Shown in pieces: positions 281 through 32,000 of a stretch of 32,000 nt of DNA. Location: assembly GCA_964347125.1 (NCBI GenBank), contig CAYFXO010000001.1:5557-37556 (forward strand), in the 5' to 3' direction. A program made the translations under genes and the position numbers. The DNA is from an uncultured Methanomassiliicoccales archaeon. GTDB taxonomy: Archaea; Thermoplasmatota; Thermoplasmata; RBG-16-68-12; CAYFXO01. The notes beneath the pieces were generated by a model, which was not told the DNA's origin, searched no databases, and worked only from the letters and a program-made list of their open reading frames with translations. How positions within the stretch are numbered: position 1 is the stretch's first letter; each line of letters opens with the position of its first letter.

Positions 281-445
281 CCTGGCGTCCCTCCACCCCT
301 CTGGCGCTTGGGCGATGTGGGTGTATCGCCGGGGGCCTCATAACGCATTCGTACCCACGGGGAAGACCGACACGGGTTCCTGGAAATCGTGCGGACGGCA
401 AGGAGGGTCATCGACGCCGTGGAGGCCCGAATCGGCGGGGGCCGC

Positions 446-1123
446 CTAGGTCAGCTCTTGGGCCTTGCGGACGAGCTTCTTCGCCTGGCGGTAGCTCAGT
501 TCGGACTCATCCGCCAAGTGTTTTGGGTCCGCCTCCGCGAGCTCCTCCACGGTCCGGATCCCCAGACCCCGCAGCTCCGCTTCCGTCGCGCTCCCGAGAC
601 CCGGGAGGTTTCGCAGGGGGGCGCCCTTCGCTCGACGGGGCATTGCGCGCAGGGCCACGAAGGCCACCCCGCCAATCAGGAGGGGGATGCCGACCCACAG
701 ACCGATGTCCAGGAGGAGGTTCGGGCACTCCGGGGTGAAGTCCGCTGCCACGACGAGATCCACCTGCTTTCGCCGCAGGGTCTCCGTGTCGAGGGGGTCG
801 AAGTCCATGGACGTCATCGCGGAGACGCCCGCGCCGGGGACGTAGACCGTCACGGGCAGGCCCACCTCGTCGCTGTGGACGTGGAGCTGGATCGAGTAGG
901 CGCCGCCACCGTCCGCCCGGGTGGAGCGGTTCTTGTCCGTCCCGGCGGGGTACTCCGCGACGTACGCAACGACGGGGGCGTTGCAGACCCCAGAGCCGTC
1001 GGGGTGGAGGACGCGGCCGTGGACCTGAAAGCGGTGGTCGGCCTCGTGTTCCGCCGTCGCGGGGGGCACCGCGAGGAGAAGAAGGGGAACGAGGGCCCCC
1101 AGCACCCACGCGACCCGCCTCAT
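446..1123 (-). CDS. secreted/membrane protein: signal peptide, beta-rich ectodomain, one TM helix, C-terminal helix-hairpin-helix-like tail
   Basis: In-frame part of track ORF 446..1447. I place the start at ATG 1123 (MRRVAWVLGALVPLLLLAVPPATA looks like a signal peptide). The upstream 108 codons are Arg-rich and overlap a better small ORF. TM helix IGLWVGIPLLIGGVAFVAL. Tail LPGLGSATEAELRGLGIRTVEELAEADPKHL is HhH-like. Confidence 0.7.
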   Translation of the reverse strand: MRRVAWVLGALVPLLLLAVPPATAEHEADHRFQVHGRVLHPDGSGVCNAPVVAYVAEYPAGTDKNRSTRADGGGAYSIQLHVHSDEVGLPVTVYVPGAGVSAMTSMDFDPLDTETLRRKQVDLVVAADFTPECPNLLLDIGLWVGIPLLIGGVAFVALRAMPRRAKGAPLRNLPGLGSATEAELRGLGIRTVEELAEADPKHLADESELSYRQAKKLVRKAQELT

Positions 1124-1263
1124 TCCTCGACCTCCCGCTCGATGATCAGCGCCCCGACGTAGTCGCAGTTCTTGCAGTGGTACTTGTAGCCGGTGATGAG
1201 CCCCGCCTCGTAGAACACGTCGGCGGAGCCGCAGTCGGGACACGTGAGGATCTTCTTGCCCAC
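1120..1263 (-). CDS. small zinc-ribbon protein (47 aa), GTG start
   Basis: Absent from the track (<60 aa). Minus strand GTG 1263 to TGA 1120: (M)GKKILTCPDCGSADVFYEAGLITGYKYHCKNCDYVGALIIEREVEE. It has two CxxC pairs and high GC3. Its stop overlaps the next gene's ATG (ATGA at 1120-1123). Confidence 0.5.
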   Translation of the reverse strand: MGKKILTCPDCGSADVFYEAGLITGYKYHCKNCDYVGALIIEREVEE

Positions 1264-1370
1264 GTGGGGTCGATTCGCGCCGCGCGTATTTGAGGTTCAC
1301 CACAAAGGGGGGGAGGAACCGCCTAACCGCAACCCTTAAGAGAAGGGGCCTGGCTCTGTGGCGGCGCGTC

Positions 1371-2282
1371 ATGTCACACCTGTCCTCTACCCGGAAAGGG
1401 GCCACCGATGTCTTCGGCATCCTGGTCGTGGTCTCCATCCTCCTCATCGCGAGCCTAGCCTACATCATCCTCACCCTCCCCGCGCCTTCGACCCGCGGGC
1501 GGGAGATCCTTTACCTACAGAACGGGGACATCGCCCGGGTGGACTTCGTCGCCACCCTCGACACCGGGGAGGTCTTCGCCACGAGCCTGGCCTCCGTGGG
1601 GGACAACGACAAGACCTACCCGAAGTCCCTCGCCTTCGACCCGCCCCTGACCTACGCACCCATCAACGTGACCATGGGGGCGCCCATGACGGGTCCCGGC
1701 TTCGAGGGCCTCGTGGACCAGGGGACGGGAATCCAACAGGCGCTCCGGGGGATGGCCATCGGCGAGACCCGCACGGTGACCCTGGAGCCCGCCGAGGCCT
1801 TCGGGGTCCACGACCCCGTCCTCGTGGAGACCCGGAACCTCGTGGAGTCGCAGCCCCTGAAGGAGACGGTCACCCTCCCCGAGTGGAACTCCCGGTTCCT
1901 CCAAGTCCCGACGGAGGACCAGACGGTCCTCGACCCGTTTTGGGGCTGGCCCGTCCGGGTCCTGGAGTTCGACGAGGGGACCCAGCTCATCACGTTCCGG
2001 GCGGAGCCCCAAGAAGGGGACCTCCTCACCCCGTTCAAGACCTTCCAGACCCGCGTGGAGAAGGTGGACGCCGCCGCCAACGGGGGCGAGGGCCTCGTCC
2101 AGGTCGGCCACCTCTTGACGTCGGAGGACGAGGGGAAGGTGTTCGCCGAGGGCCTCCAGGGCGGTTTCCTGGTGGTGGGGGTCGACGAGGCGGGCGGGAC
2201 GTTCCTCGCGGACCGGAACGATATCCGGCGGGACCATGCGGCCACTTACGAGATCACGCTGCTGAGCATCTCGCGGCCGTGA
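1371..2282 (+). CDS. membrane-anchored FKBP-type peptidyl-prolyl cis-trans isomerase
   Basis: Track ORF 1290..2282. ATG 1371 (MSHLSSTRKGATDVFGILVVVSILLIASLAYIILTL) gives an N-terminal TM anchor. FKBP signatures: GDIARVDFVATLDTGEVFATS and ALRGMAIGETRTVTLEPAEAFG. Confidence 0.8.
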   Translation: MSHLSSTRKGATDVFGILVVVSILLIASLAYIILTLPAPSTRGREILYLQNGDIARVDFVATLDTGEVFATSLASVGDNDKTYPKSLAFDPPLTYAPINVTMGAPMTGPGFEGLVDQGTGIQQALRGMAIGETRTVTLEPAEAFGVHDPVLVETRNLVESQPLKETVTLPEWNSRFLQVPTEDQTVLDPFWGWPVRVLEFDEGTQLITFRAEPQEGDLLTPFKTFQTRVEKVDAAANGGEGLVQVGHLLTSEDEGKVFAEGLQGGFLVVGVDEAGGTFLADRNDIRRDHAATYEITLLSISRP

Positions 2283-2285
2283 GCC

Positions 2286-2993
2286 TCAGTACCTCTGGCG
2301 GGCATAGGGGACGTCCTCGATCTCCCCGCCGAAGAGGACCTTCAGGTCCCCGCGGAGCCACGTGAGAAGGGTGTTCCCGTACCCGTTCTTCTCCATCCGG
2401 CGCGTCGAGAGGCGCACGAAGAGGCGGGGGTCGTACACGATGCGCCCCTCCCGCTTCAGGCGGAAGGCGATCTCCACGTCGTCAGAGTGGGGGAGGCTCC
2501 GGTAGCCGCCGATTCGTAGGAAGACATCGCGGCGGAAGGCGGAGTTCCCGCCCCCCGTGGTGTAGATGCCCAGGCGGGCGAAGATACGAATGAGGTTCCT
2601 CAGGAACAGGAACGTGAGCCGCGCCTTCCAGTCCTGCTCGATGGGGCCGTCGGGGCCGCACACCGCGACGACATCCGGGTGGTCGAAGTGGGCGAGGATG
2701 CGGGCAAGCCAATCGGAGGGCAGGAGAACGTCCGCGTCCGTCGTGGCGACGAGGGGGGCCTCGGCCACCCGCACGCCGTCGTTCCGGGCGCCGCCCACGC
2801 CCTTCGAGACCTGCCGGATCACCCGGTCGGCGCGGCGGGCGGCAATCTCCGGCGTCCCGTCCGTGCTGTCGCCGTCGACCACGATGACCTCGAACGCGTC
2901 CCGCGGGAGCGTCTGGGCATCGAACTGCGTCAGGAAGGCCTCGATCCCCGCGGCCTCGTTGTAGGTGGGCACGACGACGGAGAGGCGGGGCAT
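2286..2993 (-). CDS. family 2 glycosyltransferase
   Basis: MPRLSVVVPTYNEA..., VIVVDGDSTDGT and TTDADVLLP (DxD-type) are classic GT2 motifs. It lies directly downstream of the flavoprotein gene (that gene's stop codon ends at 2995). Confidence 0.9.
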   Translation of the reverse strand: MPRLSVVVPTYNEAAGIEAFLTQFDAQTLPRDAFEVIVVDGDSTDGTPEIAARRADRVIRQVSKGVGGARNDGVRVAEAPLVATTDADVLLPSDWLARILAHFDHPDVVAVCGPDGPIEQDWKARLTFLFLRNLIRIFARLGIYTTGGGNSAFRRDVFLRIGGYRSLPHSDDVEIAFRLKREGRIVYDPRLFVRLSTRRMEKNGYGNTLLTWLRGDLKVLFGGEIEDVPYARQRY

Positions 2994-2994
2994 C

Positions 2995-4296
2995 TCAACC
3001 GCCCATGGAACGGGCCAGGTCGAAGGCGGACCGCAGGCACATGTCCGTGTTGATGTACCGAAGCTCGCCCTGGCGCCCGCACAGCCGGATGCCCAGGCCC
3101 TCCACGTAGTCCTTCACGATCCGGGCGTTCCGTTCGAAGTCCAGGGAGAAGACGACGTAGGCGCGGGGGACCCGGGCCACCTTGGTGTAGATGACGTCCT
3201 GGCGGCGGAGGAGGCCGTGCTCGTGCAGCTTGTCCACGACGTGCTCCACCAGGGCCACATTGGGCATGCTCCAGACGTCGTCGCCGCGGTGGCAGGTGAT
3301 TTCCGCGAGGACCGACGAGGTCCCTTCGGGGGCGTTGCGGTCGCTGTAGTTCGAGGGGAAGGAGACCCGGTTGAAGAGGCCGTCCTCCCACCGGGGGAAG
3401 TAGAGCCAGGAGAGGTCGTTGAGCTCCGCCCGGTCCAGGCCGAGCATCACGGTGACGACGGAGTTGACCTGGAGCTTGGATGCGGCCTCCAGGACCTCCG
3501 GGGGGGTGCCATCCAGGAGGCGGACGAGGAGGGGGAGGGGAATCGTGGACACGAGGCGGTCGTAGGTCCGCTCCTCCGTATCGCTCCGGACGGTGTAGCG
3601 GCCGTTGTCGGCGCGGATCCCGGTGACCTCCCAGTCCGTCACCACCGAGGGGCACTGGGCGGCGATGGCCTTCGGGAGGGCCTCGATCCCCCCTTCCCGC
3701 GGGTAGACGAAGTTCAGCTGGTGGACGTAGCCCTCCGACTCCAGGCCGAGGGACGCCTTGACGATGTCCTCCAGGGGCGGCTCGGGGACCCGGCCGTCGA
3801 CCCAGTCCAGGGCCATGTCCCGAGGCTCCGCCTTCCAGATCTTCTGGTTGTACGGGATGAGGTATTTCGTGGCGATCCCCGGGCCGAAGCGGTAGTGCAT
3901 CCACTCCTCGAAGTTGCCGGGACGGGCGGCGGTCCCCGCCTGGCGGGCGATGTAGGCCTCCAGGAAGCCCTGCAGGCACTCGAAGTTCTCCTCGAGGGGG
4001 AGGTCCCGGAGGCCGTTCTCGAAGGGGTACTTCACGAGGCGGTCCCGGTAGAAGATCTTCGTGTTCCGGCGGCGGCGGGCCAGGTTGTCGCCCAGGGTCC
4101 GCTCGACGAAGGCGGAGATCTCCTCGTCCTTGGAGAACAGGATGTGGGAGCCGCAATAGTCGAAGGTGAACCCCTCTTCCGTGAGGCTCTTGCAGAGGCC
4201 CCCGGGGCGGTCCGTCTTCTCTAGAACCTCGGAGTCCGGCAGGGCGGAGGCGACCGCCAAACCTGTCAACCCGCCGCCGAGGACGCCTGTCGTCAT
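2995..4296 (-). CDS. FAD-dependent oxidoreductase, UDP-galactopyranose-mutase-like / amine-oxidase fold (tentative)
   Basis: C-terminal 433 codons of track ORF 2995..5028. Start at ATG 4296: MTTGVLGGGLTGLAVASAL...EKTDRPGGL (GxGxxG dinucleotide fold). YLIPYNQKIWK resembles the UGM Y..K.W motif. The upstream extension is Pro/Arg-rich and overlaps the DedA gene out of frame. Confidence 0.75.
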   Translation of the reverse strand: MTTGVLGGGLTGLAVASALPDSEVLEKTDRPGGLCKSLTEEGFTFDYCGSHILFSKDEEISAFVERTLGDNLARRRRNTKIFYRDRLVKYPFENGLRDLPLEENFECLQGFLEAYIARQAGTAARPGNFEEWMHYRFGPGIATKYLIPYNQKIWKAEPRDMALDWVDGRVPEPPLEDIVKASLGLESEGYVHQLNFVYPREGGIEALPKAIAAQCPSVVTDWEVTGIRADNGRYTVRSDTEERTYDRLVSTIPLPLLVRLLDGTPPEVLEAASKLQVNSVVTVMLGLDRAELNDLSWLYFPRWEDGLFNRVSFPSNYSDRNAPEGTSSVLAEITCHRGDDVWSMPNVALVEHVVDKLHEHGLLRRQDVIYTKVARVPRAYVVFSLDFERNARIVKDYVEGLGIRLCGRQGELRYINTDMCLRSAFDLARSMGG

Positions 4297-4324
4297 GCGC
4301 TCCCGCCCCGTAGAAGGGGCTTTG

Positions 4325-4337
4325 CCATATACCTTTC
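4325..4337 (-). promoter_or_regulatory. candidate TATA-like box for the flavoprotein-GT2 pair
   Basis: The minus strand reads GAAAGGTATATGG about 33 nt upstream of ATG 4296. It is nearly identical to the AAAAAGGTATATCC element upstream of the GNAT gene at 20224. Confidence 0.35.
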
Positions 4338-4928
4338 TCACTCGTTCTCGGCGGCGAGCATCCGTCGGCGGCGGAGGAGGGCGACGGCGGCGCTCACGGC
4401 GACGAACACGATGACGAAGATGAGGGTGAGGTTGGCGGCCAGGTCCTCGGGGTAGACCCACCGGAAGGCGCCCACGAGCAGGAGGAGGGCGGAGTACTTC
4501 GCGAGGCCGCCGACCACGATGAAGAGGACGGAGCGGCGGTAGTCCCACTCGCAGGCCGCCATGAAGGCGCCCACGAAGGGGACGGCGGGGGCGATGCGGT
4601 TGGTGAGGATGAGCATCTCCCGCTCCGCGAGGAGGATGTCCGTCCACTTGTTCATGGCCGCGCGGAGCCGCTTCGGCAGGCCGACCCGGCGGACGACGAG
4701 GTACAGGGTCGTGTTCCCCAGGACCTCCGCCACCTCCGCGAGGAACAGGACGGTGAGGCCCCACTCCAGGGTGGCGTCCCCCGCCTGGAAGATGAGGACG
4801 GCGAAGATCTCCGGGAGGAGGGGGATGATGATGGCGTCGACGTAGAAGATGAGGAAGAGGGAGAAGAGGAGGCCCGCGGTCCCCAGGCCCTCGAAGAGCT
4901 GGATGATCTCCGTGCCGAGTCCGCTCAC
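4338..4928 (-). CDS. DedA/VTT (SNARE-associated) family membrane protein
   Basis: 196 aa with several TM helices. The pattern LLPEIFAVLIF...GNTTLYLVVRRVG..., with a conserved Gly/Arg region, is typical of DedA. GTG start at 4928. Confidence 0.75.
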   Translation of the reverse strand: MSGLGTEIIQLFEGLGTAGLLFSLFLIFYVDAIIIPLLPEIFAVLIFQAGDATLEWGLTVLFLAEVAEVLGNTTLYLVVRRVGLPKRLRAAMNKWTDILLAEREMLILTNRIAPAVPFVGAFMAACEWDYRRSVLFIVVGGLAKYSALLLLVGAFRWVYPEDLAANLTLIFVIVFVAVSAAVALLRRRRMLAAENE

Positions 4929-4964
4929 GTGGGGTCCACCGAACCTCGTCCTCAGGAGGGGGCC

Positions 4965-5222
4965 TCAGGCTCCGGGGGTGGAGCCGTTGAGGAGCTTGCC
5001 GTACAGCCGGACCAGCTTGCTGGTGCACCGGTCGACGGAGAACTGCTCCGCCACCGCCCGGGCGCGCTCCTTGAGCGCCCCGTTGGCGTCCAGGGCCCGC
5101 ACGACGGCGTCCGCGCAGCCGGTCACGTCCCCGGATTCGAAGAGGAACCCGGTCCTCCCCTCTTTCACGAAGTCCGGAATCGCCCGGTAGTTCACCCCCG
5201 CGACGGGCTTCCCGGTCGCCAT
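4965..5222 (-). CDS. GT4 glycosyltransferase C-terminal fragment (85 aa), probable remnant or split piece
   Basis: MATGKPVAGVNYRAIPDFVKEGRTGFLFESGDV matches the EAMAxGxPVV..xxGGxPExV.dG.tGfL region of GT4/GT-B enzymes. It lies 25 nt downstream of the truncated GT4 ORF, in another frame. Confidence 0.6.
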   Translation of the reverse strand: MATGKPVAGVNYRAIPDFVKEGRTGFLFESGDVTGCADAVVRALDANGALKERARAVAEQFSVDRCTSKLVRLYGKLLNGSTPGA

Positions 5223-5247
5223 GGCCCTCGTTGGTTTCTACCTGGTA

Positions 5248-6201
5248 TTATGGGGCATGGACCGAAGTGGCTACCACCGGTGTGCCCAACGACATGGCCT
5301 CCAGGACCACGAGGCCCTGGGTCTCGAAGGTGGAGCAGATGGCGAAGGCGTCCGCCGCGGCGTAGTACTGGGGCAGCTCGTCCTCAGGGACGAACCCGGT
5401 GAAGGTGACGACGTCGTCCAGGCCCATGGCCTGGGACATCTCGCGGTACGAACCGAAGGCGGGGCCCTTCCCCACGACCATGAGGTGGGCGTCCGGGCGG
5501 GTCTTTCGGATCCGGTGGAGCGCCCCCAGGAGCTGCTCCAGGTGCTTCTCCGGGGACATGCGGCCCACGGTAAGGATGAGCTCCTCCCCGTCCAGGCCCC
5601 ACTTCTCCCGCACGCCGCTACCGTCGACGCCGGGGTGGAACCGGTCGCTGTCCACGCCCGTGGGGATGACCTCCAGGCGGCGGATCTTCGGGGCGAGGTC
5701 CCGGAGTTCCTCGGAGATGGAGGGCGTGGGGGCGACGACCCCGCCGCACTTGTGGAGGAAGATCCGGAGGTAGAACCGCATCGCGGACTCCAGGAACCCG
5801 ATGCGGAGCTGGAGGGGGGAGTAGTAGGCGAGGGCGTCCACGACCATCGTGTGGAACGTGAGGACCATGGGGATGCGGAGATCGAAGGCCGCCCAGAGGC
5901 CCTTCACCCCCACGGACCCGATGCCATGAGAATGGACGAGGTCCACGTCGTACTCGCGGAGGATCCTGGGCTCGCAGGTCGGGAGGATGGAGGCCATGCG
6001 GTAGCCGGGGTACGAGGGGAGCTCCCGCGCGCGGAGGTAGACCACCCCCGGCTCCTCCCCGTTCCCCTGCCGCCGGTCCTCGGGAGCGAAGACGATGATC
6101 TCGTGCCCGTCGGCCTCCAGGGCCTGCTTCGTGGTGAGGAGGGAGTTGACCACCCCGTCTACCGCCGGAAGGTACGAGTCCGTGAACAGCGCGATCCGCA
6201 A
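5248..6201 (-). CDS. GT4 (GT-B fold) glycosyltransferase, truncated within the C-terminal nucleotide-sugar-binding motif
   Basis: TTG start 6201. MRIALFTDSYLPAVDGVVNS... is a typical GT4 N-terminus. The ORF ends ...FETQGLVVLEAMSLGTPVVATSVHAP-stop, inside the conserved EAM..G.PVV motif. Confidence 0.75.
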   Translation of the reverse strand: MRIALFTDSYLPAVDGVVNSLLTTKQALEADGHEIIVFAPEDRRQGNGEEPGVVYLRARELPSYPGYRMASILPTCEPRILREYDVDLVHSHGIGSVGVKGLWAAFDLRIPMVLTFHTMVVDALAYYSPLQLRIGFLESAMRFYLRIFLHKCGGVVAPTPSISEELRDLAPKIRRLEVIPTGVDSDRFHPGVDGSGVREKWGLDGEELILTVGRMSPEKHLEQLLGALHRIRKTRPDAHLMVVGKGPAFGSYREMSQAMGLDDVVTFTGFVPEDELPQYYAAADAFAICSTFETQGLVVLEAMSLGTPVVATSVHAP

Positions 6202-6205
6202 TCGT

Positions 6206-7516
6206 TCACCCCTGCGCTATTCTCCTGACCTTGTCCACGATGTCTTGCGGGTCGGTCCCCAGGACACGGATCATGGCCTCCTTGCCGACGCCGCCACGGT
6301 CCCAGATGACGTCGGGGACGCCGCCGTGGGCCCGGATGGCCTCCGCGGTGCCCCATTCCATCGTCGAGACCTTCTCCGGCTCCTGGCTCCTGTCAAAGGT
6401 GGAGGCGCTCAGTCCGAGGGCCCGAATTCGGTCGAGACTTTGCTCCGTAAACTTAAGGTTTGCGGCGGCGCGGATTCGGGGGTCCTCCCGGGAGGCGGTG
6501 ACGATGATGCGGGCCACGTGGCGGGAGGCGCCGAAGTCCGGCGGGCCAGTGACGGTGGCGACGCCGCCGACGGGGACGATGCGGCCCTTCAGGGCGCACA
6601 CGTCCTCGAGGGATTCGGGGAATGGGAGGGCGTAGCCCAGGTTCGTCCCCACCTCGGGGACCATCTCCAAGGGGAGGACCCCCGCCAGGGCCTCGGCCCC
6701 CTCCAGGACGGCCCGCCAGACCGCGTGGCGGTCTTCCGGGACGTGGGGGTGGATGGCCTCCACGCCCTTGCCGTAGGCGTAGTGGGCCTCGTGCCCCAGT
6801 ATGACCTGGCGCTTCGCTTGGCCCACCGCCGCGGGGACGTCCTTCCCTTGGGCCAGGTAGGCGGCGAGGAAGGCGGACAGGACGCAGCCGCTCCCGTGGA
6901 GTTCCAGGTCCAACCGTGGGCCCTCGAACCGCTGGAACGTCTCCCCGTCGAAGAGGACGTCCACCGCGGGTCCCTTCAGGTGGCCCCCCTTACATAGCAC
7001 GTACTTGGGGCCGAGGGAGTGGATCCGGCGGCACGCCTCTTCCATGGACTCGGGGTCGGTGACGCTGAACCGGGCCAGGACCGCGGCCTCGTGGAGGTTG
7101 GGGGTGACCACCGTGGCCATCGGGAGGAACTTCGCCTCCAGGGCTTCGACGAAGTCGTCGCGGGCGAGGGAATCGCCCACGGTGGCGACCAGGACGGGGT
7201 CCACGACCAGGGGGAGGTTCCGCCCCTTGAGCGCCCGGGCCACCGCCTCCACGATCTCCGCGGAGTAGAGCATCCCCGTCTTCGCCGCCCCCACGTCCAG
7301 GTCCGTGAGGACGGCCTCCAGCTGGGCCGTCACCATGTCCGGGGGAATCGGGTGGATGGCCTCGACGCCCTGCGTGTTCTGGGCGGTGATGGCGGTGAGG
7401 ACGCTGGCGCCGTGGACGCCCGCGGCGGCGAAGGCCTTCAGGTCCGCCTGGATGCCCGCGCCTCCAGAGGAATCGCTCCCCGCGATGGTCAACGCGCTCT
7501 TCACGGCGGCGAGCAA
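6206..7516 (-). CDS. thiDN: bifunctional hydroxymethylpyrimidine/phosphomethylpyrimidine kinase (ThiD) and thiamine-phosphate synthase (ThiN)
   Basis: The N-terminus [22 protein letters not shown]... is ThiD. The C-terminal roughly 170 aa ([11 protein letters not shown]...KGRIV...[15 protein letters not shown]) is a ThiN domain, so this is the archaeal fusion. The start is TTG 7516 or GTG 7504. Confidence 0.9.
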
Positions 7517-7613
7517 CGGGGGGTCCCCGCTTAAACTTGACTTGCCCAGTCTCAGGGCGGTGCAACGAACCTCCGCGGGCCGTCTGGCTCCCCCGAAGCG
7601 CAGGGCGCCCCGT

Positions 7614-7630
7614 CCGAAAATGGTTTATAG
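7614..7630 (+). promoter_or_regulatory. BRE/TATA-like promoter for the 7652 gene
   Basis: CCGAAAATGGTTTATAG ends about 22 nt before ATG 7652, consistent with a leaderless or short-leader archaeal transcript. Confidence 0.45.
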
Positions 7631-7651
7631 CTTCCTCCGGATGAATCGGCC

Positions 7652-8032
7652 ATGCGGGCCCGGAGCGGCCACATCCGGTTGGGGAAGAGGATCCAGTACA
7701 AGAGGCTCCTGCCCGTGTACGAGGAGATCCTCACCCGGTTCCTGGAGGAGACGGGTCAGATGCCGGAGAACGACCCGGAGTACGTCTCCGTCATCCTGGA
7801 GGAGAACCTGCGGGACCTGCGCCTCAACCGCAAGCCCGAGGGGTACAACCGGGAGTTCGGGATGCGCCTCATCTTCCCCATCAGCGACCGGGTGGAGTTC
7901 TACGTCTACGGTCGGGGGCGGACCACGGAGGTGCCCCGGATCACGGAGGTGCTCAGCCGCCTCCTCCACGAGAAGAAGATCAAGCACGAGGTGGACTGGG
8001 ACCAGCTCGTGGTGTTCCAGGACCGGGACTAG
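7652..8032 (+). CDS. hypothetical protein (126 aa)
   Basis: High GC3, a non-repetitive balanced composition and its own TATA-like element. I recognise no family. Confidence 0.6.
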
Positions 8033-8592
8033 CCGAGGTGGGCCTCCCGCAGCGTCGTGTAGATCGGTCCCTTCGGGGTGAGGACGCTCTGCTTCAGGCG
8101 GACCGCGTCCAGGGTCTGGGCGCCGAACTCCGCCCCCTGGTAGTCCCGCAGGACCTGCTGAAGGCGCTCCTTGTGGCGGCCCCCCTTCACGCGGCCCACG
8201 GTCACGTGGGGCCGGAACGGGCGGCGCTCCCGCTTGAAGCCCAGGGGCTCCAGCCCCGCCTCGAGGTCTGTGGCGATGCCTTCCAGGGGGGCCCCGCCCT
8301 CCATGCCGACCCAGACGACCTTGATGTGGCTGAGGCTGGGGAAGGCCCCCGCCCCGCGGAGGGTGATGGGGATGGCCTCCACCCCGGCGCACGCCTCCTG
8401 CAGCACCTCGTCGACGGCATCCACCGCCCCCTCCTCCGTGTCGCCCAGGAACTTCAGGGTCACGTGGAGAATGTTCAGGTCCACCATCTTGACCGGGGCC
8501 CCGGTCTCGGCCACCGCGGTCGCGAACCCCCGCAACCGCGCCCCCACCTCCAGGTCCGCCGCGATGAAGCACCGGATGGCCGCCACCGTCAC
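8029..8592 (-). CDS. thpR: RNA 2',3'-cyclic phosphodiesterase (2H family, LigT/ThpR)
   Basis: Two HxT/S motifs (HVTLKF and HVTVGR) at the expected spacing. I place the start at GTG 8592, which overlaps the pyrH stop (GTGA). The rest of track ORF 8029..9306 is out-of-frame overlap with pyrH. Confidence 0.85.
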
Positions 8593-23394: not shown

Positions 23395-26300
23395 TTGGTG
23401 GGGAATGGAGGAGTCGATTTGAGCCCGCGCATCCACTCGCGCCTACTGAGCGTATTGGTCGTTGTCACGCTGTCCTCCTCCGCGTTCGCGTTCTTCCCCG
23501 CGGCGACGGGCGACGTCACAGACGGCGTGGACGTGGCCCCCGCGGACGATTCCCTCGGTCCCGCGGCCCCCACCACGGAGGACCCGCAGACGATCGCGGG
23601 CCTCTATAAACTCGAGGCGGGCCTCCGAAGCCACCTCGACTCCAAGGAGACCGTCCGCGTCCTCATCGCGACCTACGACGTGGGCGCCCTCGGCGTGGCC
23701 CTGGGGGCGGGGGCGGTGGACGCCGCCGACCTCGGTGCCAAGGCCCCCGGCCTCGCGGTCCCCATGGTGGACCTCCAGGGCGTCCGCCTCAAGGAGATCG
23801 CCGCCCTGGACTCCACCGTCGCCATCATGGAGTGGCGGCCCCCGGAGCGGCAGGTCGTTGAGACCGTGGACACCTTCTCGAAGAAGGGCGTGCGCCCCAG
23901 CAACCTCAACTCCACCCTGAACCACCTGGCCCCCCAGGCGTGGGCCGCGGGGTGGACGGGCGACGGGGTGCGCATCTCCGTCATGGACGACGGGGTGGAC
24001 TTCGCCCACCCGGACCTCATGGGGACCATGGCCCGGTTCAACTGGACGAACCTCCCCGCGAACATCCAGGCCGCGAAGCCCCACCTCCGGCACTACGACA
24101 ACTGGCCCATGGCCTTCGACCCCTTCTCCATGTCCAGCTTCATGATGAACAACGGCGAGGCGGAGGGGACGTGGTACGGGAACACCACCTCCACGGACCG
24201 CAACGTCACCCACACCATCCGGATCGACGGCCGGAACGACTTCTGGGACGACGGGAGCGAGCTCGTCGCCACCGACCTCCGGGGGGACATCAACGTCGGC
24301 CAGCCGTCCCACCTGGGGAACGACTTCGACCTCGTCTCCCTGTACGCCACCCAGGACGCGGACTGGTGGTATTTCGGCTTCGACACCTTCACGAACCAGT
24401 CGGACGTGGCCTTCGGCCTCTACATCGACACGGACAACGTCACGGGGTCGGGCGGGGACGTGGACCCGCGAGCGGGGAGCCTCATCACCGCCGTGCCCGA
24501 GCACCGCCCGGAGTTCGTCGTCTACATCGACCACCTGGGCGGGCAGCCCCCGGGGCAGTACGACCGGAACGACACCGTGGAGAACGGGACGGTCTACACC
24601 TGGCTGGGCTCCGCCTGGGACGCCGGGGTGAACATCACGGAGTTCCCCATCAACGGGCAGATCAGCTACAGCGCCTGGGACTTCGAGGATGAGGAGGCGT
24701 TCCTGGAGTTCTCCCTGCCCAAGGCGTTCCTAGGGGACCCCCAGCAGCTCGCGGTGGAGCTGTTCACCGCGGGGGTGAACGCGTCCCACGCCCTGGACAC
24801 CGCCTACTCCGACCCGAACGTGAACTTCCCAGCCCCCGACTGGACGCCGACGCCCACCCAGCTCTCCGCGTTCACCTACGTGGGGCGGGGCTTCTGGATC
24901 CACACCTACGTCCGCTCCGACGACACCGTCGCGGGGAAGCCGAACGTCCAGATGTCGTGGCCCCTGGAGTACCAGGTCACGGGGACCAGCAAGAGCGGCG
25001 GCTACTACTTCGGCGACCACCCGGACGACAACTACCCCCTCACCCGGATTCTCGTGGTGGACGAGGCGGTGGCGGGGGTGTACGACACCGTCTACGTGGA
25101 CCTGGACCACAACCGGGACTTCACGAACGACAAGCCCCTGAAGAAGTACGGGAAGTACTGCGCGGACAAGCAGTGGCGGCCCGCGGACGACCCCGTGGCC
25201 TGCCCGGTCTACGACGAGACCTCGTGGCTGGACTTCTTCGACCCCGCCTCGGGGGTGACGTCCATCGACTACGCCCCGAACGGGACGTGGATTGCCACCG
25301 GGTCCAACGACCACCGGATCCTCCTGTGGGACGCCGCCTCCGGCGCCCAGGTCAACGAGTTCCACGCCCACCGCGGGCGGGTGACGTCCGTGGCCTGGGA
25401 CCTTGCGGGGCTACGCCTCGCCGCGGGCTATGCCGACGCCTCCGGCCGCGGGCAGCACGCCGTGGTCGTGTGGAACTGGGACGGCACGGTGGCCGCCACG
25501 TTCACCGAGAGCGACGGCGGGCACACCGCGGGGGTCACCGCCGTGGCGTGGGACCCCGTCGGGGCGAACAACCGCCTCGTCTCCGCGTCGATGGACGGCA
25601 CCGCGAAGGTCTGGAACGTCGGAACGGGCCTCGTGGCCACCCTCACCGGACACACGGCCGCCGTCGGGACCGCGGACTGGGGCGCCAACGGCATCGCCAC
25701 CGGCTCTGACGACGGGACCGTGCGCCTCTGGGACGCCTCGTGGACCGAGGCGGACTCGGTGGCCCACGGCACGCCCCTCAACGCCATCGCGTTCAGCCCG
25801 AACGGGACGTGGCTCGCCTACGGCGACCGGGCGGGGCTCCTGAGCGTGTGGGACGTGGTCCTGGACGCCTGGAGCACCTGGTCCATCCCCGAGCACCAGA
25901 CCCTCCCGATCACCTCCGTATCCTGGTCCCCCGTGGCCTCCCAGCTCCTCACCACCTCCACGTGGGACGAGGAGACGAACAACTTCGTCCTCGCCCGGTG
26001 GACGGTCAACAACTACAACGACTTCTTCGTCACCGGCTCCAAGACGGGGCAGGCGGCCCACGAGGCCAGCGTGTTCTCCGGGACCTGGTCCACCGACGGC
26101 CTCTCCGTCGTCTCCGGCGGGGAGGAGGCCCGGGCGCGGCGGTGGACGAGCGCCACCCTCTCCCTGGAGGGAGACTACAAGGGCCACGCCCTGGGGTCCA
26201 CCGACTACACGTGGTACCTCACGGGCGACGGCGTCCCGGACGTCTCCGGCGGGATCATCTACTTCATCGCGCAGAACGAGTGGGACTTCGGCAGCGGGAC

Positions 26301-29300
26301 CCTGGAGCAGGTGCCCATCCCCTACTCGGACGTGTGGATCGCCCGCCAGCCGGCCGTGCTGGACCTGCAGAACATCATCCCCGCCAACGGGACCGTCGTC
26401 GCCTTCATGGGCGCCCTGGACCTGGACCAGGGCCACGGCACCCTCGTCGCGTCGAGCCTCGTGGGGCGCGGCCAGTCCACCTACTTCGACGAGGGGACCA
26501 TGGACGTCCCCACGGTGGGCCACGTCATCGGGTTCGCCCCTGACGCCCTCCTCGTGCCCGTGGCGAACGTCTACGCCACGAACTTCTACGACGGCTGGTA
26601 CTTCTCGGTGGAGGGCTACGACGGCACCCCGAACACGGGGGACGAGGCCCACATCATCTCGAACTCCTTCGGCTTCTCCGGGACCTACCACGACGGGTGG
26701 GACTTCAACGCCCGGTTCCTGGACTACCTGGTGAACGACCACGCGGACGGGAACGTGACGATCACGGTGTCCTCGGGGAACTCCGGGTGGGGGTACGGGA
26801 CGGTGTCCACCCCCGCGGCGTCCCCCGCGGTCATCACCGTCGGCGCGGCCACGGACTTCTTCTACCGCCACCTCTCGGGGCTGGAACGGGGCCTCAACCC
26901 GACGTTCGGGGAGGTCACCCCGGAGTCCTCCCGCGGGCCCACGGCCCAGGGGATGCCGGACCCGGACGTGGTGGCGAACGGCCGCATGGCCTTCGGGTCT
27001 GTCGCCCTGAACCAGGTGGACTACCGCCCCTACAACGGCTACGAGGCCACGAACCTCTGGGCGGGGACGTCCCTGGCCTCGCCGGGGGCTGCGGGGATGC
27101 TCGCCCTGGCCTTCCAGGCGTACAAGGAGGCCAACGGGGCGTTCCCCAACGCGAGCGTCGCCAGGAGCCTCCTCATGAGCGGGGCGGACAATCTGAAGTA
27201 CGACCCGCTGGTCCAGGGGGCGGGGCGGGTGAACGCCCTCCGCACCGCGCAGTTGGCGGCCGGGCAGGACGGCTTCCTCGTGGCGCCGAACCTGTGGAAC
27301 CCCGGGGACTACCAGGGCACCCGGTACGAGTCGTTCGCCCACCTCATGGACCCGGGGGACAGCGCCCAGGAGACCTTCACCGTCACGAACGTCGCCCCGG
27401 CGCCGGACACCCTCACCCTCACGGACGCGGTCTTCCAGAAGACCTCCGAGGTGAACTTCACCTTCCAGACCCAGACGGACCTCCCCAACGACCCCGCCCA
27501 CTGGTTCCTCATCCTCCACGGCCTCCCCCTGGCCCTGACGGGGACGGGGGTGTACGACAAGAATTACCAGAAGGTCGCGGCCATCGACGAGGGTGAGTGG
27601 CTGAACGCGGACCTCCTGCGGATCAGCTACCGGGTTCCCATCGGCGACCTGGATCCCGACGGCGACGGGAACACGAACTACTCCTACTTCCTCGAGGTCA
27701 TGGACTGGTCCGAGGACGACTGGACGATGTTCCCGCCGGAGCCGAACACGGGGGCCTTCAGCGACCTGAACCGCCGCCTCATCGTGTTCCCCGACGCGAA
27801 CGTGTGGGAGGGGCGCATCCACGACCCCGCGGGGCGGACCCACGACGGGTTGGCGATGGGCGTCCGGGCGGGCATCCAGCCGGGGAAGCCCGGGGCCGCG
27901 GGGATCAACTTCCTGGTGACCCTGGAGTTCTACCAGAAGGCGGACTGGAACTGGCTGAGCCTCAGCACGGGCTCTCTGTCCCTGGCGGGCGGGGAGACGC
28001 AGACCTTCACCTCGACGGTGGACGTCCCCGCGGGGACCCCCATCGGCGGCTACGAGGGGGCCATCTACATCCAGGGCGACCCCGCCACCGCCTCCGCCAC
28101 TCGGTCGATCCAGGTGCCCTTCTTCGCCAGCTGGGTGTCCGCGGACCACCAGGACATCTCCGCCCTCACGGTCCTCAGGAACGGCGTCCCCCAGACGGCG
28201 GGGGTGGACTACCTGGAGTACCTGGCCGCCGGGATGGTCAACTTCACCGCCCCGCTGAACCCCGGCGACGTGGTGCAGATGGACTACACCTACGCGAACA
28301 CCACGACGATTCCCGTGGTGATCAACGTCCCCTCGAACCAAGTGGAGTTCGGCTTCGGGCAGGACGCGCCGGGGCAGGACGACCTGTTCCGGAACCGCGT
28401 CGTGGGGGGCTTCGGGCAGGGCACCCAATCCGGGGACTGGCGGTTCTACTTCGTGGACGTCCCCGACCAAGGGCAGTTCTCCATCGAGAGCGGCTCGAAG
28501 TTCTTCCTGGACCTCCAGTGGGACCTGGACATGACGGACATCAACGGGTACGCGTTCGGGCCGGGGGCGGTGCCCATCGCCGCGGGCCTCACCGCGGGGG
28601 CGTTCCCCCAGAGCCGGTACGGGCCCTACCTGCTGTACACGACCAACGGCGGCTCCGAGGAGACGGCCACGTTCTTCACGACCACGGGCGGGCCGGAGGA
28701 GATCGTGGCCCCGGGCCTCGTGGGGGGCCTGAACGTCCTGGCGATCCAGAACGTCCTGATGAACGGGACCTACGCGTCGGAGGCCGTCTCCGGGCAGGTG
28801 GGGAGCATGCGCGTGAACCCGCCGGAGATCAAGGTGGTGACGAACGAGCTCTCCGGGTCCCGGGATGTCCTCCTGTACTCCAGCGTGCCGTGGCCCGGCA
28901 TCGGGAGCGTCTCCGCGGGGCCGTCCGCCCCGGAGGAGTTCCTCGACGTCCCCATCCAGCAGGACGTCATCGAGGGCGGCACCTTCATCGACCTCCTCGT
29001 GGGCGGCTCCTACACGAAGGTCGTCAACGTGGAGCCCAGCGCCCTCATCTTCGACGTCCACATCACCTCGAACCCCGGGGACCCGCCGGAGGGGACGGCG
29101 GAGCCCTGCGACGACCTGGACCTGGCCCTGTTCCTCGACGGGAAAGGGCCGGACAACGTGCCGGACGGCGCGGCCCAGGTGGAGGAGTTCGTCGTCTACG
29201 ACGCGGACGCCGACGCGGACGAGCACATCCGCCTCATCAAGCCGACGGTGCAGGACGACCCGGACACGCCCGAGGTCAACGAGGGCGTCGTCGGGGCGCC

Positions 29301-31755
29301 GTACATCATCAAGGTCCTCGGGTTCACGTGCCCCAAGGGCTTCGGGACCTTCAACATGGACCTCACCCTGGTGCAGGGGGAGGGCTTCACGGTGGCGGGG
29401 ACGACCGCCGCCCTCATCCCCGCGTGGAACGTGAGCACCGTCACCCTGCAGTGGAACCTGGACGGGAGCACCCCCGACGGGGAGCTCCTGGGGGCGCTCT
29501 ACGTGGGCCCGGAGAAGGCCCCCCTCACCCTCCTGATCCCCGTGGAGCTGGCCGTCGACCGGGTCGCGCCGGTGATCGAGGGCTTCAGCCTGAACACCGC
29601 CCCGGGCCTCCAGATCGAGAACGCGACGCAGCTGCGGACGAACGATCCCATGCCCCGGGTGGCCATCTCGTTCAGCGACGCGGAGCGCGGCGAGCTTTCG
29701 TACGACTCCGTCCGGCTGTGGCTGGACGGCCAGGACATGACCCCCCAGGCGGAGGTCGTCATCCCGTTCGGCCTGAACGCGGAGGAGAAGCTCGGGTACT
29801 GGCAGGGGGCGGTGACCTTCGGCGTGCCCGCGCCCCTCCCGGACGGCCCCCACTTCCTCACGGTCGCCGTGGGGGACGAGGGGGGGAACGTCGCGTCCCA
29901 GAGCTTCGTCGTCGTCATCGACACCCAGTCCCCGCCCCTGACCCTGGACGACCCGGACGTGAGCTTCACGAACCAGGGGACCCACGCCATCACGGGTGCG
30001 TCGCGGCCCGGAAGCACCGTGGAGATCCCCGGCGGGACCGTGGAGATGGAGGCGGACGGGACCTTCCGGGCGACGGTCACCCTGGCGGAGGGCGCGAACG
30101 TGTTCGAGGTGCGGTCCGTCCCGTGGTACTCCGTGGACGGGTCGGGGAACCCCGTGCCTGCCAACGTGGCCACGGTGGAGAAGACCATCGTCTACGACGC
30201 CCTCGCGCCGGCCTTCGACCAGGCCCTCATCCAGGGGCCGAACCCCACCCGCACGGCGACCGCCCCGGTGACGGGGCGGGTGTCGGACCTCATCGCGGCG
30301 GGGACGCCGTGGGACCCGACGACGCTGGCGGTGACGGTGGCCGGTCGCGCGGTGGCCGTGAACGCGGACGGCTCATTCGAGACCCTCGTGCCGCTGGTGG
30401 AAGGACCGAACGTCATCCCGTTGACGGCGACGGACCTCGCGGGGAACACCGCGTCGGTGAACCGGACCGTGATCCTGGACACCTTGGCGCCGAGCCTTTC
30501 GCTGGAGGCTGTGCCGGAGACGACGAATCGGAGGACCCTCACGATCGAAGGGCAGACGGAGCTGTCGGCGGTCCTCACCCTGAACGGCGGGCTCGTGGTG
30601 ACGGCGGCGGGCGCCTTCACCGTGGACGTGGAGCTCAGCCGGGGGGCGAACGTCCTGGTGGTCGCGGCGGAGGACGTGGCGGGGAACCGGGTGGAGCGCC
30701 GCCTCGTCGTGGAGTACCGCCCGGAGGCGGGGCCGGACCTCCTGCTGTGGGTGCTCGCGCCGCTGCTCCTTGTGGTCGGGCTGCTCCTGGGATTCTTCGT
30801 GGGGCCGCGGGTCCTCGGGCCGCGGGGCCCTGAGGAGGAGGAACCGGAGGAGGCGGAGCCCGAGGAACTCCCGGAGGAGGACGAGCGGATCGCGCGGCTG
30901 CGGGAGGCCTACGAGTCCGGGAGGATCACCGAGGAGGTGTACGAGGAGAACCTGGCCCGCCTCGCGGGGGAAGCCCCGGAGGAAGAAGCTCCGGCGGAAG
31001 AGGAGGAGATCCCGCCCGAAGAGGAGGAGGAGGAACCTCCGGAAGAGGACCAGCGCCCGCCCGAAGAGGAAGAGGCGATCGCGCCGGAGGAAGAGGAGAT
31101 TCCCGAAGAGGCGGTCCCGGCCGAGGAGGACCCCTTGGCCCGGCTGGAGGCCGCCTTCGCCGCCGGCAGGATTTCGCGGGAGGTCTACGAGCAGAACCGG
31201 GCACGGCTGACGGGGGCCCCTCCCGCGGAGGAGGAAGCGGCCGAGGAGGAACTCGAGGAGCCTCCCGAGGAAGTGGAGGAGCCCCTCGCAACGGAGGACC
31301 AAGTCACCCGGCTCCAAAGGGCCTTCGAGGCGGGGAGGATCTCCGAGGCGGTGTACCGCGAGAACCTCGCCCGCATCGGCGTCGAGGCCCCGGAGGAGCC
31401 CGAGGAAGAGGCCGTGGAACCCGAAGAGGAGGTCCCGGAAGAGGACGAGCGAGTGCTCCGGGTTCAGCGGGCCTACGAGGCGGGCAAGATCTCCCGGGAC
31501 GTGTACGAGAAGAACCTGGCCTTGATGGGCTTCGAGGTCCCCGAGGAGGCGGTCGACCTGGGGCCGCTGACGCGGCTTGCCGAGGCGTTCGCGGCGGGTC
31601 GGGTCTCGGGGGACCTGTTCACCCAGAACCTGGGCCGCCTGGAGCTCCCTGACGCGGAGTTGCCCAACAAAGTCGAGAGGCTCTCCGCGGCGTACGAGGC
31701 GGGGAAGATCTCCGAGACGGTGTTCCGCGAGAACGTGAAGCGGCTCCTCAAGTAG
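23395..31755 (+). CDS. giant (about 2780 aa) type-I membrane-anchored S8 subtilisin-like serine protease with an inserted WD40 propeller, Ig-like stalk domains and a cytoplasmic SHOCT-repeat tail
   Basis: There is no ATG start. Candidates are TTG 23395, GTG 23398 and TTG 23419, the last preceded by GGAGGAG plus a 5-nt spacer and giving signal peptide (M)[26 protein letters not shown]8 motifs: [17 protein letters not shown] (Asp, 23986), [11 protein letters not shown] (His, 26434), IISNSFG (Asn, 26662) and [12 protein letters not shown] (Ser, 27070). TM helix at 30739-30804. Confidence 0.9.
25261..26148 (+). repeat. seven WD40-like blades inside the protease
   Basis: Blade ends ...[11 protein letters not shown], ...HAVVVWN, ...[10 protein letters not shown], ...[11 protein letters not shown], ...[10 protein letters not shown], ...NNFVLARWT and ...[10 protein letters not shown], each preceded by an H/GH..V.(S/A)(V/I)(A/S)W-type strand. 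Confidence 0.8.
30880..31749 (+). repeat. six SHOCT-like repeats of about 28 aa separated by Glu/Pro-rich linkers (cytoplasmic tail)
   Basis: Repeat cores: 30880-30963 [28 protein letters not shown]; 31129-31209 [27 protein letters not shown]; 31294-31377 [28 protein letters not shown]; 31441-31527 [29 protein letters not shown]; 31558-31641 [28 protein letters not shown]; 31666-31749 [28 protein letters not shown]. Confidence 0.8.
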
Positions 31756-31817
31756 CCTCGCTCGCCAGGGCATCGAAGCCCCTCGGCCCTGGCCGACCCT
31801 CCAGGGCGGCACCGAAG

Positions 31818-31829
31818 CGTTATATAACG
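31818..31829 (+). promoter_or_regulatory. palindromic TATA box for cysS
   Basis: CGTTATATAACG is a perfect 12-nt palindrome about 40 nt upstream of ATG 31868. Confidence 0.45.
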
Positions 31830-31867
31830 GCCCCCGCGTAGTTCGCCCACCCTCCCGGAGACCCTCC

Positions 31868-32000
31868 ATGGCGCTGCGCCTGTACAACACGAAATCACGG
31901 GAGCTCGAGGCTTTCGAACCGCTGGACCCGCCGGAGGTGCGGATGTATGTTTGCGGGCCCACGGTCTACGACTACGCCCACGTGGGCCACGCCCGGTCCT
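31868..32000 (+). CDS. cysS: cysteine--tRNA ligase, N-terminal part (runs off the window end)
   Basis: My translation: [44 protein letters not shown]. This is the canonical CysRS N-terminus with the HIGH motif (HVGH). Confidence 0.9.

Follow-up and report, generated by a model that had tools for sequence, protein, structure and literature searches.

We examined a window of 32,000 nucleotides (nt) from an uncultured Methanomassiliicoccales archaeon (contig CAYFXO010000001.1, forward-strand positions 5,557 to 37,556; coordinates below count from the first letter of the window) and, within it, the C-terminal tail of a giant type-I surface protein of 2786 amino acids (aa) that is read from the gene at 23395..31755 on the plus strand. 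The predicted structure shows this tail as an intrinsically disordered, Glu/Pro-rich tether that carries six separately folded hairpins of ∼28 aa. Comparison with relatives marks the six-unit tail as the expanded form of a C-terminal cassette that is common to many giant proteins of the same archaeal order. Our favored reading, which we hold with middling confidence, is that the hairpins form a multivalent docking array beneath the membrane that would anchor or cluster the protease. To our knowledge, SHOCT and SHOCT-like domains, the kin of these hairpins, are widespread and their function has never been shown by experiment; likewise, we know of essentially no account of the links between the giant surface proteins of archaea and the inside of the cell.

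Anatomy of the tail

According to the list of open reading frames (ORFs) and their translations, the protein begins with a signal-peptide-like N-terminus and continues with an S8 subtilase, into which a WD40 propeller is inserted, an immunoglobulin-like (Ig-like) stalk, a transmembrane (TM) helix, and the tail. The single C-terminal TM helix (aa 2449-2470, 30739..30804, plus strand, as are all units and linkers; aa 2448-2473 in the AlphaFold2 model) is followed by the residues PRVLGPRGP, and the tail after it runs for 316 aa to position 31752, the last sense base. An earlier note on this DNA had described a tail of ∼315 aa after a single TM helix at 30739-31752, six helical units of ∼28 aa with a common consensus, highly acidic Glu/Pro linkers, and spacings between unit starts of 249, 168, 147, 117, and 111 nt. 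This description held up well. Position 30739 is the first codon of the TM helix, our own alignment gave an agreeing consensus, and the core A[FY]xxG[RK][IV]S recurs at aa 2505, 2587, 2643, 2693, 2731, and 2766. Successive units start 82, 56, 50, 38, and 35 aa apart (246, 168, 150, 114, and 105 nt), within 6 nt of the earlier values.

The six units align without gaps over ∼33 residues, with R9, A13, G17, and N27 of that alignment invariant in all six. Individually, they are near neutral (net charge −3 to +2), and almost all of the tail's charge lies in the linkers, which carry −9, −27, −12, −12, −4, and −3 from linker 0 through linker 5. The tail as a whole has a net charge of −65 and consists of 31% Asp plus Glu and 10% Pro. 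Linker 0 (25 aa, 30805..30879), Glu/Pro-rich and with a low predicted local distance difference test score (pLDDT), leads to unit 1 (aa 2496-2523, 30880..30963), the unit with the best single-unit Pfam match, where AlphaFold2 places two helices (aa 2495-2507 and 2513-2525, pLDDT ∼94). After linker 1 (54 aa, 30964..31125, pLDDT ∼45-50) come unit 2 (aa 2578-2605, 31126..31209), seen alike by hidden Markov model (HMM), alignment, and AlphaFold2; unit 3 (aa 2634-2661, 31294..31377); and unit 4 (aa 2684-2711, 31444..31527). Units 3 and 4 are 70% and 67% identical, respectively, to the corresponding units of a six-unit paralogue in the same genome. A terminal double unit, formed by units 5 and 6 (aa 2722-2749 and 2757-2784, 31558..31752; starts 35 aa apart), closes the protein.

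We modeled aa 2440-2786 with AlphaFold2 from a 16-row alignment. The model contains the TM helix and six helix-loop-helix hairpins, each built of a helix, a five-residue loop, and a second helix, with pLDDT ∼90 in the units and below 50-58 in the linkers. The tail as a whole has no fixed overall arrangement in this model (predicted template modeling score, pTM, 0.29). AlphaFold2 modeling of the terminal pair gave four helices with a pLDDT of 86 and a pTM of 0.66, which indicates that units 5 and 6 pack as a compact four-helix end-cap. In most multicopy relatives the last two units also start 32-35 aa apart, and the terminal pair has a conserved sequence of its own, which we aligned over 30 proteins (about 30 representative clusters).

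The steadily decreasing spacers, which the earlier note had pointed out, proved particular to this protein. The paralogue has spacings of 59, 53, 54, 49, and 35 aa, and other arrays likewise show no shrinking trend; we therefore rejected a gradient of spacer length as a designed feature. On this comparison of arrays, the tight last pair is the sole conserved feature of the spacing. The earlier view that the repeats are diverged and owe nothing to recent slippage stands for the units; the linkers differ in this respect. Pairwise nucleotide identity among the six units is 47-70%, and hence they are old. The linker DNA carries imperfect tandem repeats with periods of 15, 21, and 45 nt, concentrated at 30970-31111 (Tandem Repeats Finder). 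Because these repeats sit in linker 1, its length is probably recent and due to repeat expansion, which would be the probable reason why it is the longest spacer.

Kinship with SHOCT-like domains

The top Pfam family on the tail was DUF1707, the "SHOCT-like domain" (PF08044), with 45.8 bits (E 6.4e-12; cut-off 27.6). The same family ranked first in most relatives tested, and PF08044 also appears among the Pfam assignments that were precomputed for this protein's public gene call. Taken one by one, units 1-3 gave 21.0, 16.8, and 16.5 bits (E 3.4e-4 for unit 1), units 4 and 5 gave none, and unit 6 gave 14.6; in the HMM scan of the six tail units, no single unit reached the cut-off of any Pfam domain. 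The match spans only profile positions 10-39 of 53, of which 10-36 are the bi-helical core. Scores in relatives ranged from 23.8 to 55.1 bits, with P0009 (27.0) and P0018 (23.8) under the cut-off, and P0014 had no DUF1707 match at E ≤ 0.01. Scores that are summed over repeats are inflated: FlgM also exceeded its cut-off in three relatives (P0007, P0008, and P0012), and the pass of DUF1707 is therefore weaker than it appears. GvpG (PF05120) came second, with 20.6 bits on the tail, a unit maximum of 18.4, and up to 51.4 bits when summed over the tail of the relative P0004. Membership in GvpG fails for our tail, which scored below the cut-off of 30.6 and covered only positions 31-63 of the 67 in the model.

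The SHOCT family proper (PF09851), to which the earlier note had assigned the units, gave 15.2 bits on the tail and 13.8 bits on unit 1, the sole unit that it matched, against a cut-off of 27 bits. Across the genome, no unit exceeded this cut-off, and SHOCT_2 (PF20612) was unmatched. For a more sensitive comparison, we set a profile of 54 units from 20 loci against 30 archaeal SHOCT domains that score above the PF09851 cut-off. The two aligned end to end and in register (hhalign probability 87.4%, E 3.7e-6, score 24.1); as controls, 200 column shuffles scored 7.6 ± 2.0 (maximum 18.4; z ∼8), and the reversed SHOCT profile scored 15.1. An HMM built from the same 30 domains gave −4.3 bits on the tail, which is within the shuffle range, a failure that probably stems in part from composition correction. 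With its HMM scores below the cut-off and the 30-domain HMM silent on the tail, we rejected strict membership in PF09851; what stood of the proposed SHOCT match is kinship at the level of the superfamily. The only other SHOCT-type match in the genome is an ORF at a contig end (2..247 of L083, minus strand), which has a near-canonical SHOCT motif at its N-terminus and scores just below the PF09851 cut-off (25.8 bits).

The units share the signature L-x-x-A-[YF]-x-x-G-[RK]-I-[ST]-x-x-x-Y-x-x-N-L-x-x-L. Among the 54 aligned units, G18 is present in all 54, Y/F25 in 53, I20 in 46, S/T21 in 44, and E/D23 in 42, and the polar columns N28 and R/K19 are each conserved in 50. These units have the hallmarks of SHOCT, namely a two-helix hairpin of ∼28 aa with a Gly turn and, where helix 2 opens, [IL]-[ST]-x-x-E-[FY]. 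They are also placed as SHOCT domains are, mostly at the very C-terminal end of proteins that are otherwise unrelated. DUF1707 matches 13 of the 54 at E < 0.01. We read the hairpins as a divergent member of the SHOCT-like superfamily, closest to DUF1707 and outside strict PF09851 SHOCT. For annotation, they would represent a SHOCT-like subfamily specific to this lineage, whose single units escape the current Pfam cut-offs and which marks a shared C-terminal anchoring cassette.

We also considered whether the hairpins could be degenerate helix-hairpin-helix motifs that tether DNA or RNA to the membrane. A resemblance of this kind was seen by the authors of the SHOCT family (PMC3581485). The (HhH)2 model of topoisomerase V matches 5 of the 54 units at E < 0.01, the Topo-V_HhH_2_2nd model gives 10.8 bits on the tail, and topoisomerase V is among the best PDB sequence matches of the units (E ∼0.8-1). 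These PDB matches are nonsignificant and cover 13 residues only, in a search with the 54-unit profile whose best E values were 0.46-1 over 13-16 residues. The G-h-G hairpin signature is absent, helix-hairpin-helix membership fails since no significant model, PDB, or Foldseek match was obtained, and a net charge of −65 argues further against nucleic acid binding, which we consider very improbable.

A C-terminal cassette shared by giant proteins

Four proteins of this genome carry the unit. One, on another contig, is an S8/WD40 giant paralogue with six units, whose frame has two breaks in the assembly. It is read in three successive frames (ORFs 749..4987, 4305..8366, and 7505..8563 of L041), with apparent frameshifts near positions 4300 and 7650, the latter within the first acidic linker; the gene could be a real pseudogene, or the breaks could be errors of assembly in GAG-rich repeats. 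Units 1 and 2 of the paralogue, each taken with the linker after it, are nearly identical and thus suggest a recent duplication there. Units 3-6 of our tail find their best matches in their positional counterparts (identities 0.70, 0.67, 0.64, and 0.58). Hence, the six-unit array predates the duplication of the gene, and this positional matching argues that the array is old and under selection; the linkers, for their part, drift in composition. The remaining carrier proteins have one unit each. One is a Big_5 surface protein; the other is a CarboxypepD_reg/TSP3 protein (P0159, on L043) whose tail consists of a TM helix, RRRGR, an acidic linker, a four-Cys zinc ribbon, and the C-terminal unit. 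Zinc ribbons also accompany the unit in P0014, P0018, P0102, and P0146.

Across the order, the unit was found in 23 of 79 genomes (E ≤ 1e-4), and it was found in none of 150 sampled Thermoplasmatota genomes outside the order (E ≤ 1e-6). A word-indexed homologue search with the tail had returned only four giant proteins, as Glu/Pro words saturate the candidate list. Exhaustive HMM search of 1.84 billion protein representatives yielded 196 matches at E ≤ 0.001; the source of one named member is "Euryarchaeota archaeon RBG_16_68_12." The unit usually occurs once: among the best 150 of the 196 representatives, 95 have one unit and 55 have between 2 and 12 (two in 24, three in 14, and 4-12 in 17). 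Within the same 150, the unit or units end at most 12 aa from the C-terminus in 123, and a median of ∼70 aa (range 12-244), of which 25% are Glu and 17% Pro, separates the TM helix from the first unit. Elsewhere in the order, single tails carry ∼10 (G029), 8 (G031), and 6 (G030) copies. The linkers in these three genomes are Pro/Ala-rich and not acidic, and acidity is therefore not the conserved property. With six units in the paralogue as well and 1-12 in relatives, the array is, by comparison of sequences, far beyond chance.

Unrelated ectodomains (S8/WD40, fn3/Big_5, and CarboxypepD_reg/TSP3) stand above tails that the unit ends. What precedes the TM helix is often similar. In our protein, for which Pfam reports WD40, Peptidase_S8, Big_13, and Glucodextran_B, the best Big_13 and Glucodextran_B stretches form the membrane-proximal stalk (aa 2137-2362, 29803..30480, plus strand). 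The single-unit giants P0113 and P0141 are not proteases, and their fn3 and Big_5 ectodomains rest on the same Big_13/Glucodextran_B stalk; in P0113, P0141, and P0069, these two domains immediately precede the TM helix. Sequence relatives thus show the conserved entity to be a cassette of Ig-like stalk, TM helix, disordered linker, and hairpin. Beyond the giants, we found small stand-alone proteins that consist of an N-terminal TM helix and 7-12 units with little else, and a further architecture with a zinc ribbon, five units, two TM helices, and another zinc ribbon.

Such variation in number allows the view that the tail is a functionless, entropic charged bristle or spacer, in which the helices would be by-products of repeat expansion and their number would be neutral. 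The copy number of 1 to 12 among relatives fits this view, as do the slippage-prone DNA and the unconserved composition of the linkers. The sequence of the units, however, is conserved where that of the linkers is not; the positional conservation between paralogues and the 47-70% identity of the unit DNA oppose a neutral, recent expansion; and the terminal pair is kept across ∼30 clusters. We therefore regard a bristle without function as improbable.

The surroundings of the carrier genes are of a housekeeping kind. The protease gene is followed immediately by genes for cysteinyl-tRNA synthetase (CysRS; 425..1633 of the downstream stretch L082) and eIF2-gamma (2095..3327 there). Among metagenomic relatives, the stand-alone genes that encode a TM helix plus 7-11 units (P0009 and P0011) adjoin genes for CysRS, ribosomal protein S6e, and eIF2-gamma; the CysRS/eIF2-gamma neighborhood recurs in the other orientation, and one stand-alone array gene has a gene for an 894-aa PKD-domain protein just upstream. 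In P0141, P0157, and P0158, the source names a unit-bearing protein of 3725 aa with six Big_5 domains "ribosomal protein S6E (S10)," a name that probably spilled over from the adjoining S6e gene.

The public gene call of our protease (P0003) has 2449 aa, and its start codon is an internal GTG that corresponds to residue 338 of the 2786-aa ORF. A protein begun there would lack both the signal-peptide-like N-terminus and the opening portion of the subtilase, and the true start is doubtful. Several antisense ORFs overlap the protease gene, one of them over the tail (30373..31962, minus strand, 529 aa) and others including one of 1524 aa. Given a G+C content of 68-71% in the window, we dismissed them as high-G+C products, because ∼70% G+C predicts such ORFs and the plus frame has conserved homologues; the antisense ORFs overlapping the gene have no homologue support.

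Proposed docking beneath the membrane and comparison with known systems

We infer that the tail is cytoplasmic, in agreement with the earlier note, which had placed it on the inner face. The part before the single TM helix comprises typically extracellular domains behind a signal-peptide-like N-terminus, the 2400-aa ectodomain has 23 N-glycosylation sequons (N-x-S/T), where the tail has none, and in relatives zinc ribbons and an AAA+ ATPase lie on the same side of the membrane as the unit. The residues that flank the TM helix give a weak positive-inside signal in our protein (two Arg in the 10 residues after and one in the 10 before); in 72 of the 96 relatives with a detectable TM helix, at least two Lys or Arg follow right after it. 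SHOCT-like domains are also predicted to be intracellular (PMC11237479).

We propose that each hairpin is a protein-protein docking unit. This role is suggested by the size of the hairpin, since 28 aa are too few to bury seven conserved hydrophobic positions alone, and by the end-cap, in which two hairpins are predicted to pack together. A hairpin could pair with a like hairpin of the same tail, of another tail, or of a stand-alone TM-plus-array protein; alternatively, the hairpins may all share a single partner that lies beneath the membrane. Several units would confer avidity and the long, flexible linkers reach, and from within the cell the array could in this way keep the giant protease in place, position it, or gather it into clusters. 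Clustering or anchoring by the array had already been suggested in the earlier note and seems a reasonable extension of what is seen.

Several results weigh against this proposal. The whole-tail model contains no confident packing among units 1-4 (pTM 0.29). When the end-cap model was compared with the PDB by Foldseek, nothing was returned at E ≤ 0.001, and the best TM-score, 0.71, was to a generic four-helix immunity protein. No soluble carrier of the unit turned up in this genome, whose completeness is 84%, and the neighborhoods of the carrier genes yielded no partner. The score of 15.1 for the reversed profile means that part of the likeness to SHOCT is that of a generic "amphipathic helix, Gly, helix" sequence, and the case for the superfamily is built on HMM scores that are summed or lie under the threshold, together with a single comparison between profiles. 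Finally, the statement in the earlier note that SHOCT is thought to mediate oligomerization was too strong: the paper that defined the domain tested the idea on a bacterial SHOCT domain, in the sole published test, and the result was negative (PMC3581485).

The hairpins could instead bind the membrane directly, lying on the inner leaflet, so that six copies would strengthen and spread the anchorage of the 2400-aa ectodomain. SHOCT-like domains have been predicted to anchor other domains at the inner membrane face (Ravi et al. 2024, PMC11237479), the unit always occurs on membrane proteins, and basic residues are kept at unit positions 7, 10, 19, and 31 (Arg or Lys in 42-50 of 54 units). The hydrophobic moments of the helices are modest, however (0.2-0.57), and their mean hydrophobicity is low; the units are nearly neutral in charge, and a tail with a net charge of −65 should repel anionic lipids. 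Linkers of 12-244 aa (median ∼70) between the TM helix and the unit would be needless if the unit returned to the same membrane, and the conserved hydrophobic residues suit a hairpin core and four-helix packing. On balance, we judge direct membrane binding unlikely, although it is the strongest of the alternatives to docking.

Docking might also be to one specific, unrelated cytoplasmic partner that belongs, for example, to the cytoskeleton, to cell division, or to quality control. The hairpins would then not pair with each other; the array would offer equivalent sites for this ligand and serve in signaling or in turnover of the protease. The conserved polar residues N28, R/K19, and S/T21 suggest a defined recognition surface, and restriction to one order would be expected if the unit had coevolved with a lineage-specific partner. 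Against this, helix capping explains G18 and S/T21, and arrays that stand alone and free of other domains suit a scaffold better than a substrate. A search for a partner near the carrier genes found only housekeeping neighbors (CysRS, eIF2-gamma, and S6e), and no candidate gene is conserved beside the carriers. This alternative appears somewhat less probable still than membrane binding.

A more specific form of our docking proposal, to which we give the same low credence as to the unrelated partner, is that the hairpins are self-complementary "zippers." The end-cap would then represent pairing in cis. Pairing in trans would join the single hairpins on the tails of diverse giant surface proteins to the stand-alone 7- to 12-unit proteins as hubs, and the resulting lattice under the membrane would organize and immobilize the surface coat of these Thermoplasmata. 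If true, such a lattice would be an undescribed archaeal link between the surface layer and the cell interior. With 1-12 copies, a double end-cap, stand-alone arrays, and variable linkers, the relatives provide a natural series for testing both the binding of the hairpins and the effect of valency.

Among known systems, SHOCT (PF09851; Eberhardt et al. 2013, PMC3581485) resembles the unit in its two-helix hairpin of ∼28 aa, the Gly turn, and the [IL]-[ST]-x-x-E-[FY] that follows, and both as a rule occur singly, at the very C-terminal end of many proteins that are unrelated to one another. The unit differs in that a nearly invariant Asn takes the place of the conserved Lys of SHOCT helix 2, and in an invariant Ala-[YF] before the turn. 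It is moreover confined to one archaeal order and always follows a TM helix, from which a long disordered linker separates it. That SHOCT usually occurs once and terminally, as the earlier note held, is right for the usual single copy, but there is precedent for multiple copies in an eight-copy SHOCT protein of Naegleria (PMC3581485). DUF1707 (PF08044), the SHOCT-like bi-helical domain (Ravi et al. 2024, PMC11237479), shares the bi-helical core and is likewise predicted to be intracellular and membrane-proximal, with anchoring at the inner membrane face as the later proposal for SHOCT-like domains; our units span half of its 53-position model. In that study, one such domain or a pair of them adjoins a globular domain in the cytoplasm, and no arrays of 6-12 units on the tails of giant surface proteins are described there. 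GvpG is similar in its C-terminal helices (profile positions 31-63), but it is a small gas-vesicle accessory protein, whereas we are dealing with the tail of a surface protease. In literature that names the "SHOCT domain" or "SHOCT-like" domains, we found no account of the order-specific variant, of the conserved double end-cap, or of arrays in the tails of giant surface proteins from archaea. Tandem SHOCT copies and membrane-near SHOCT-like domains are already known; the order-restricted variant, the end-cap, and the arrays on giant proteins appear to be new.

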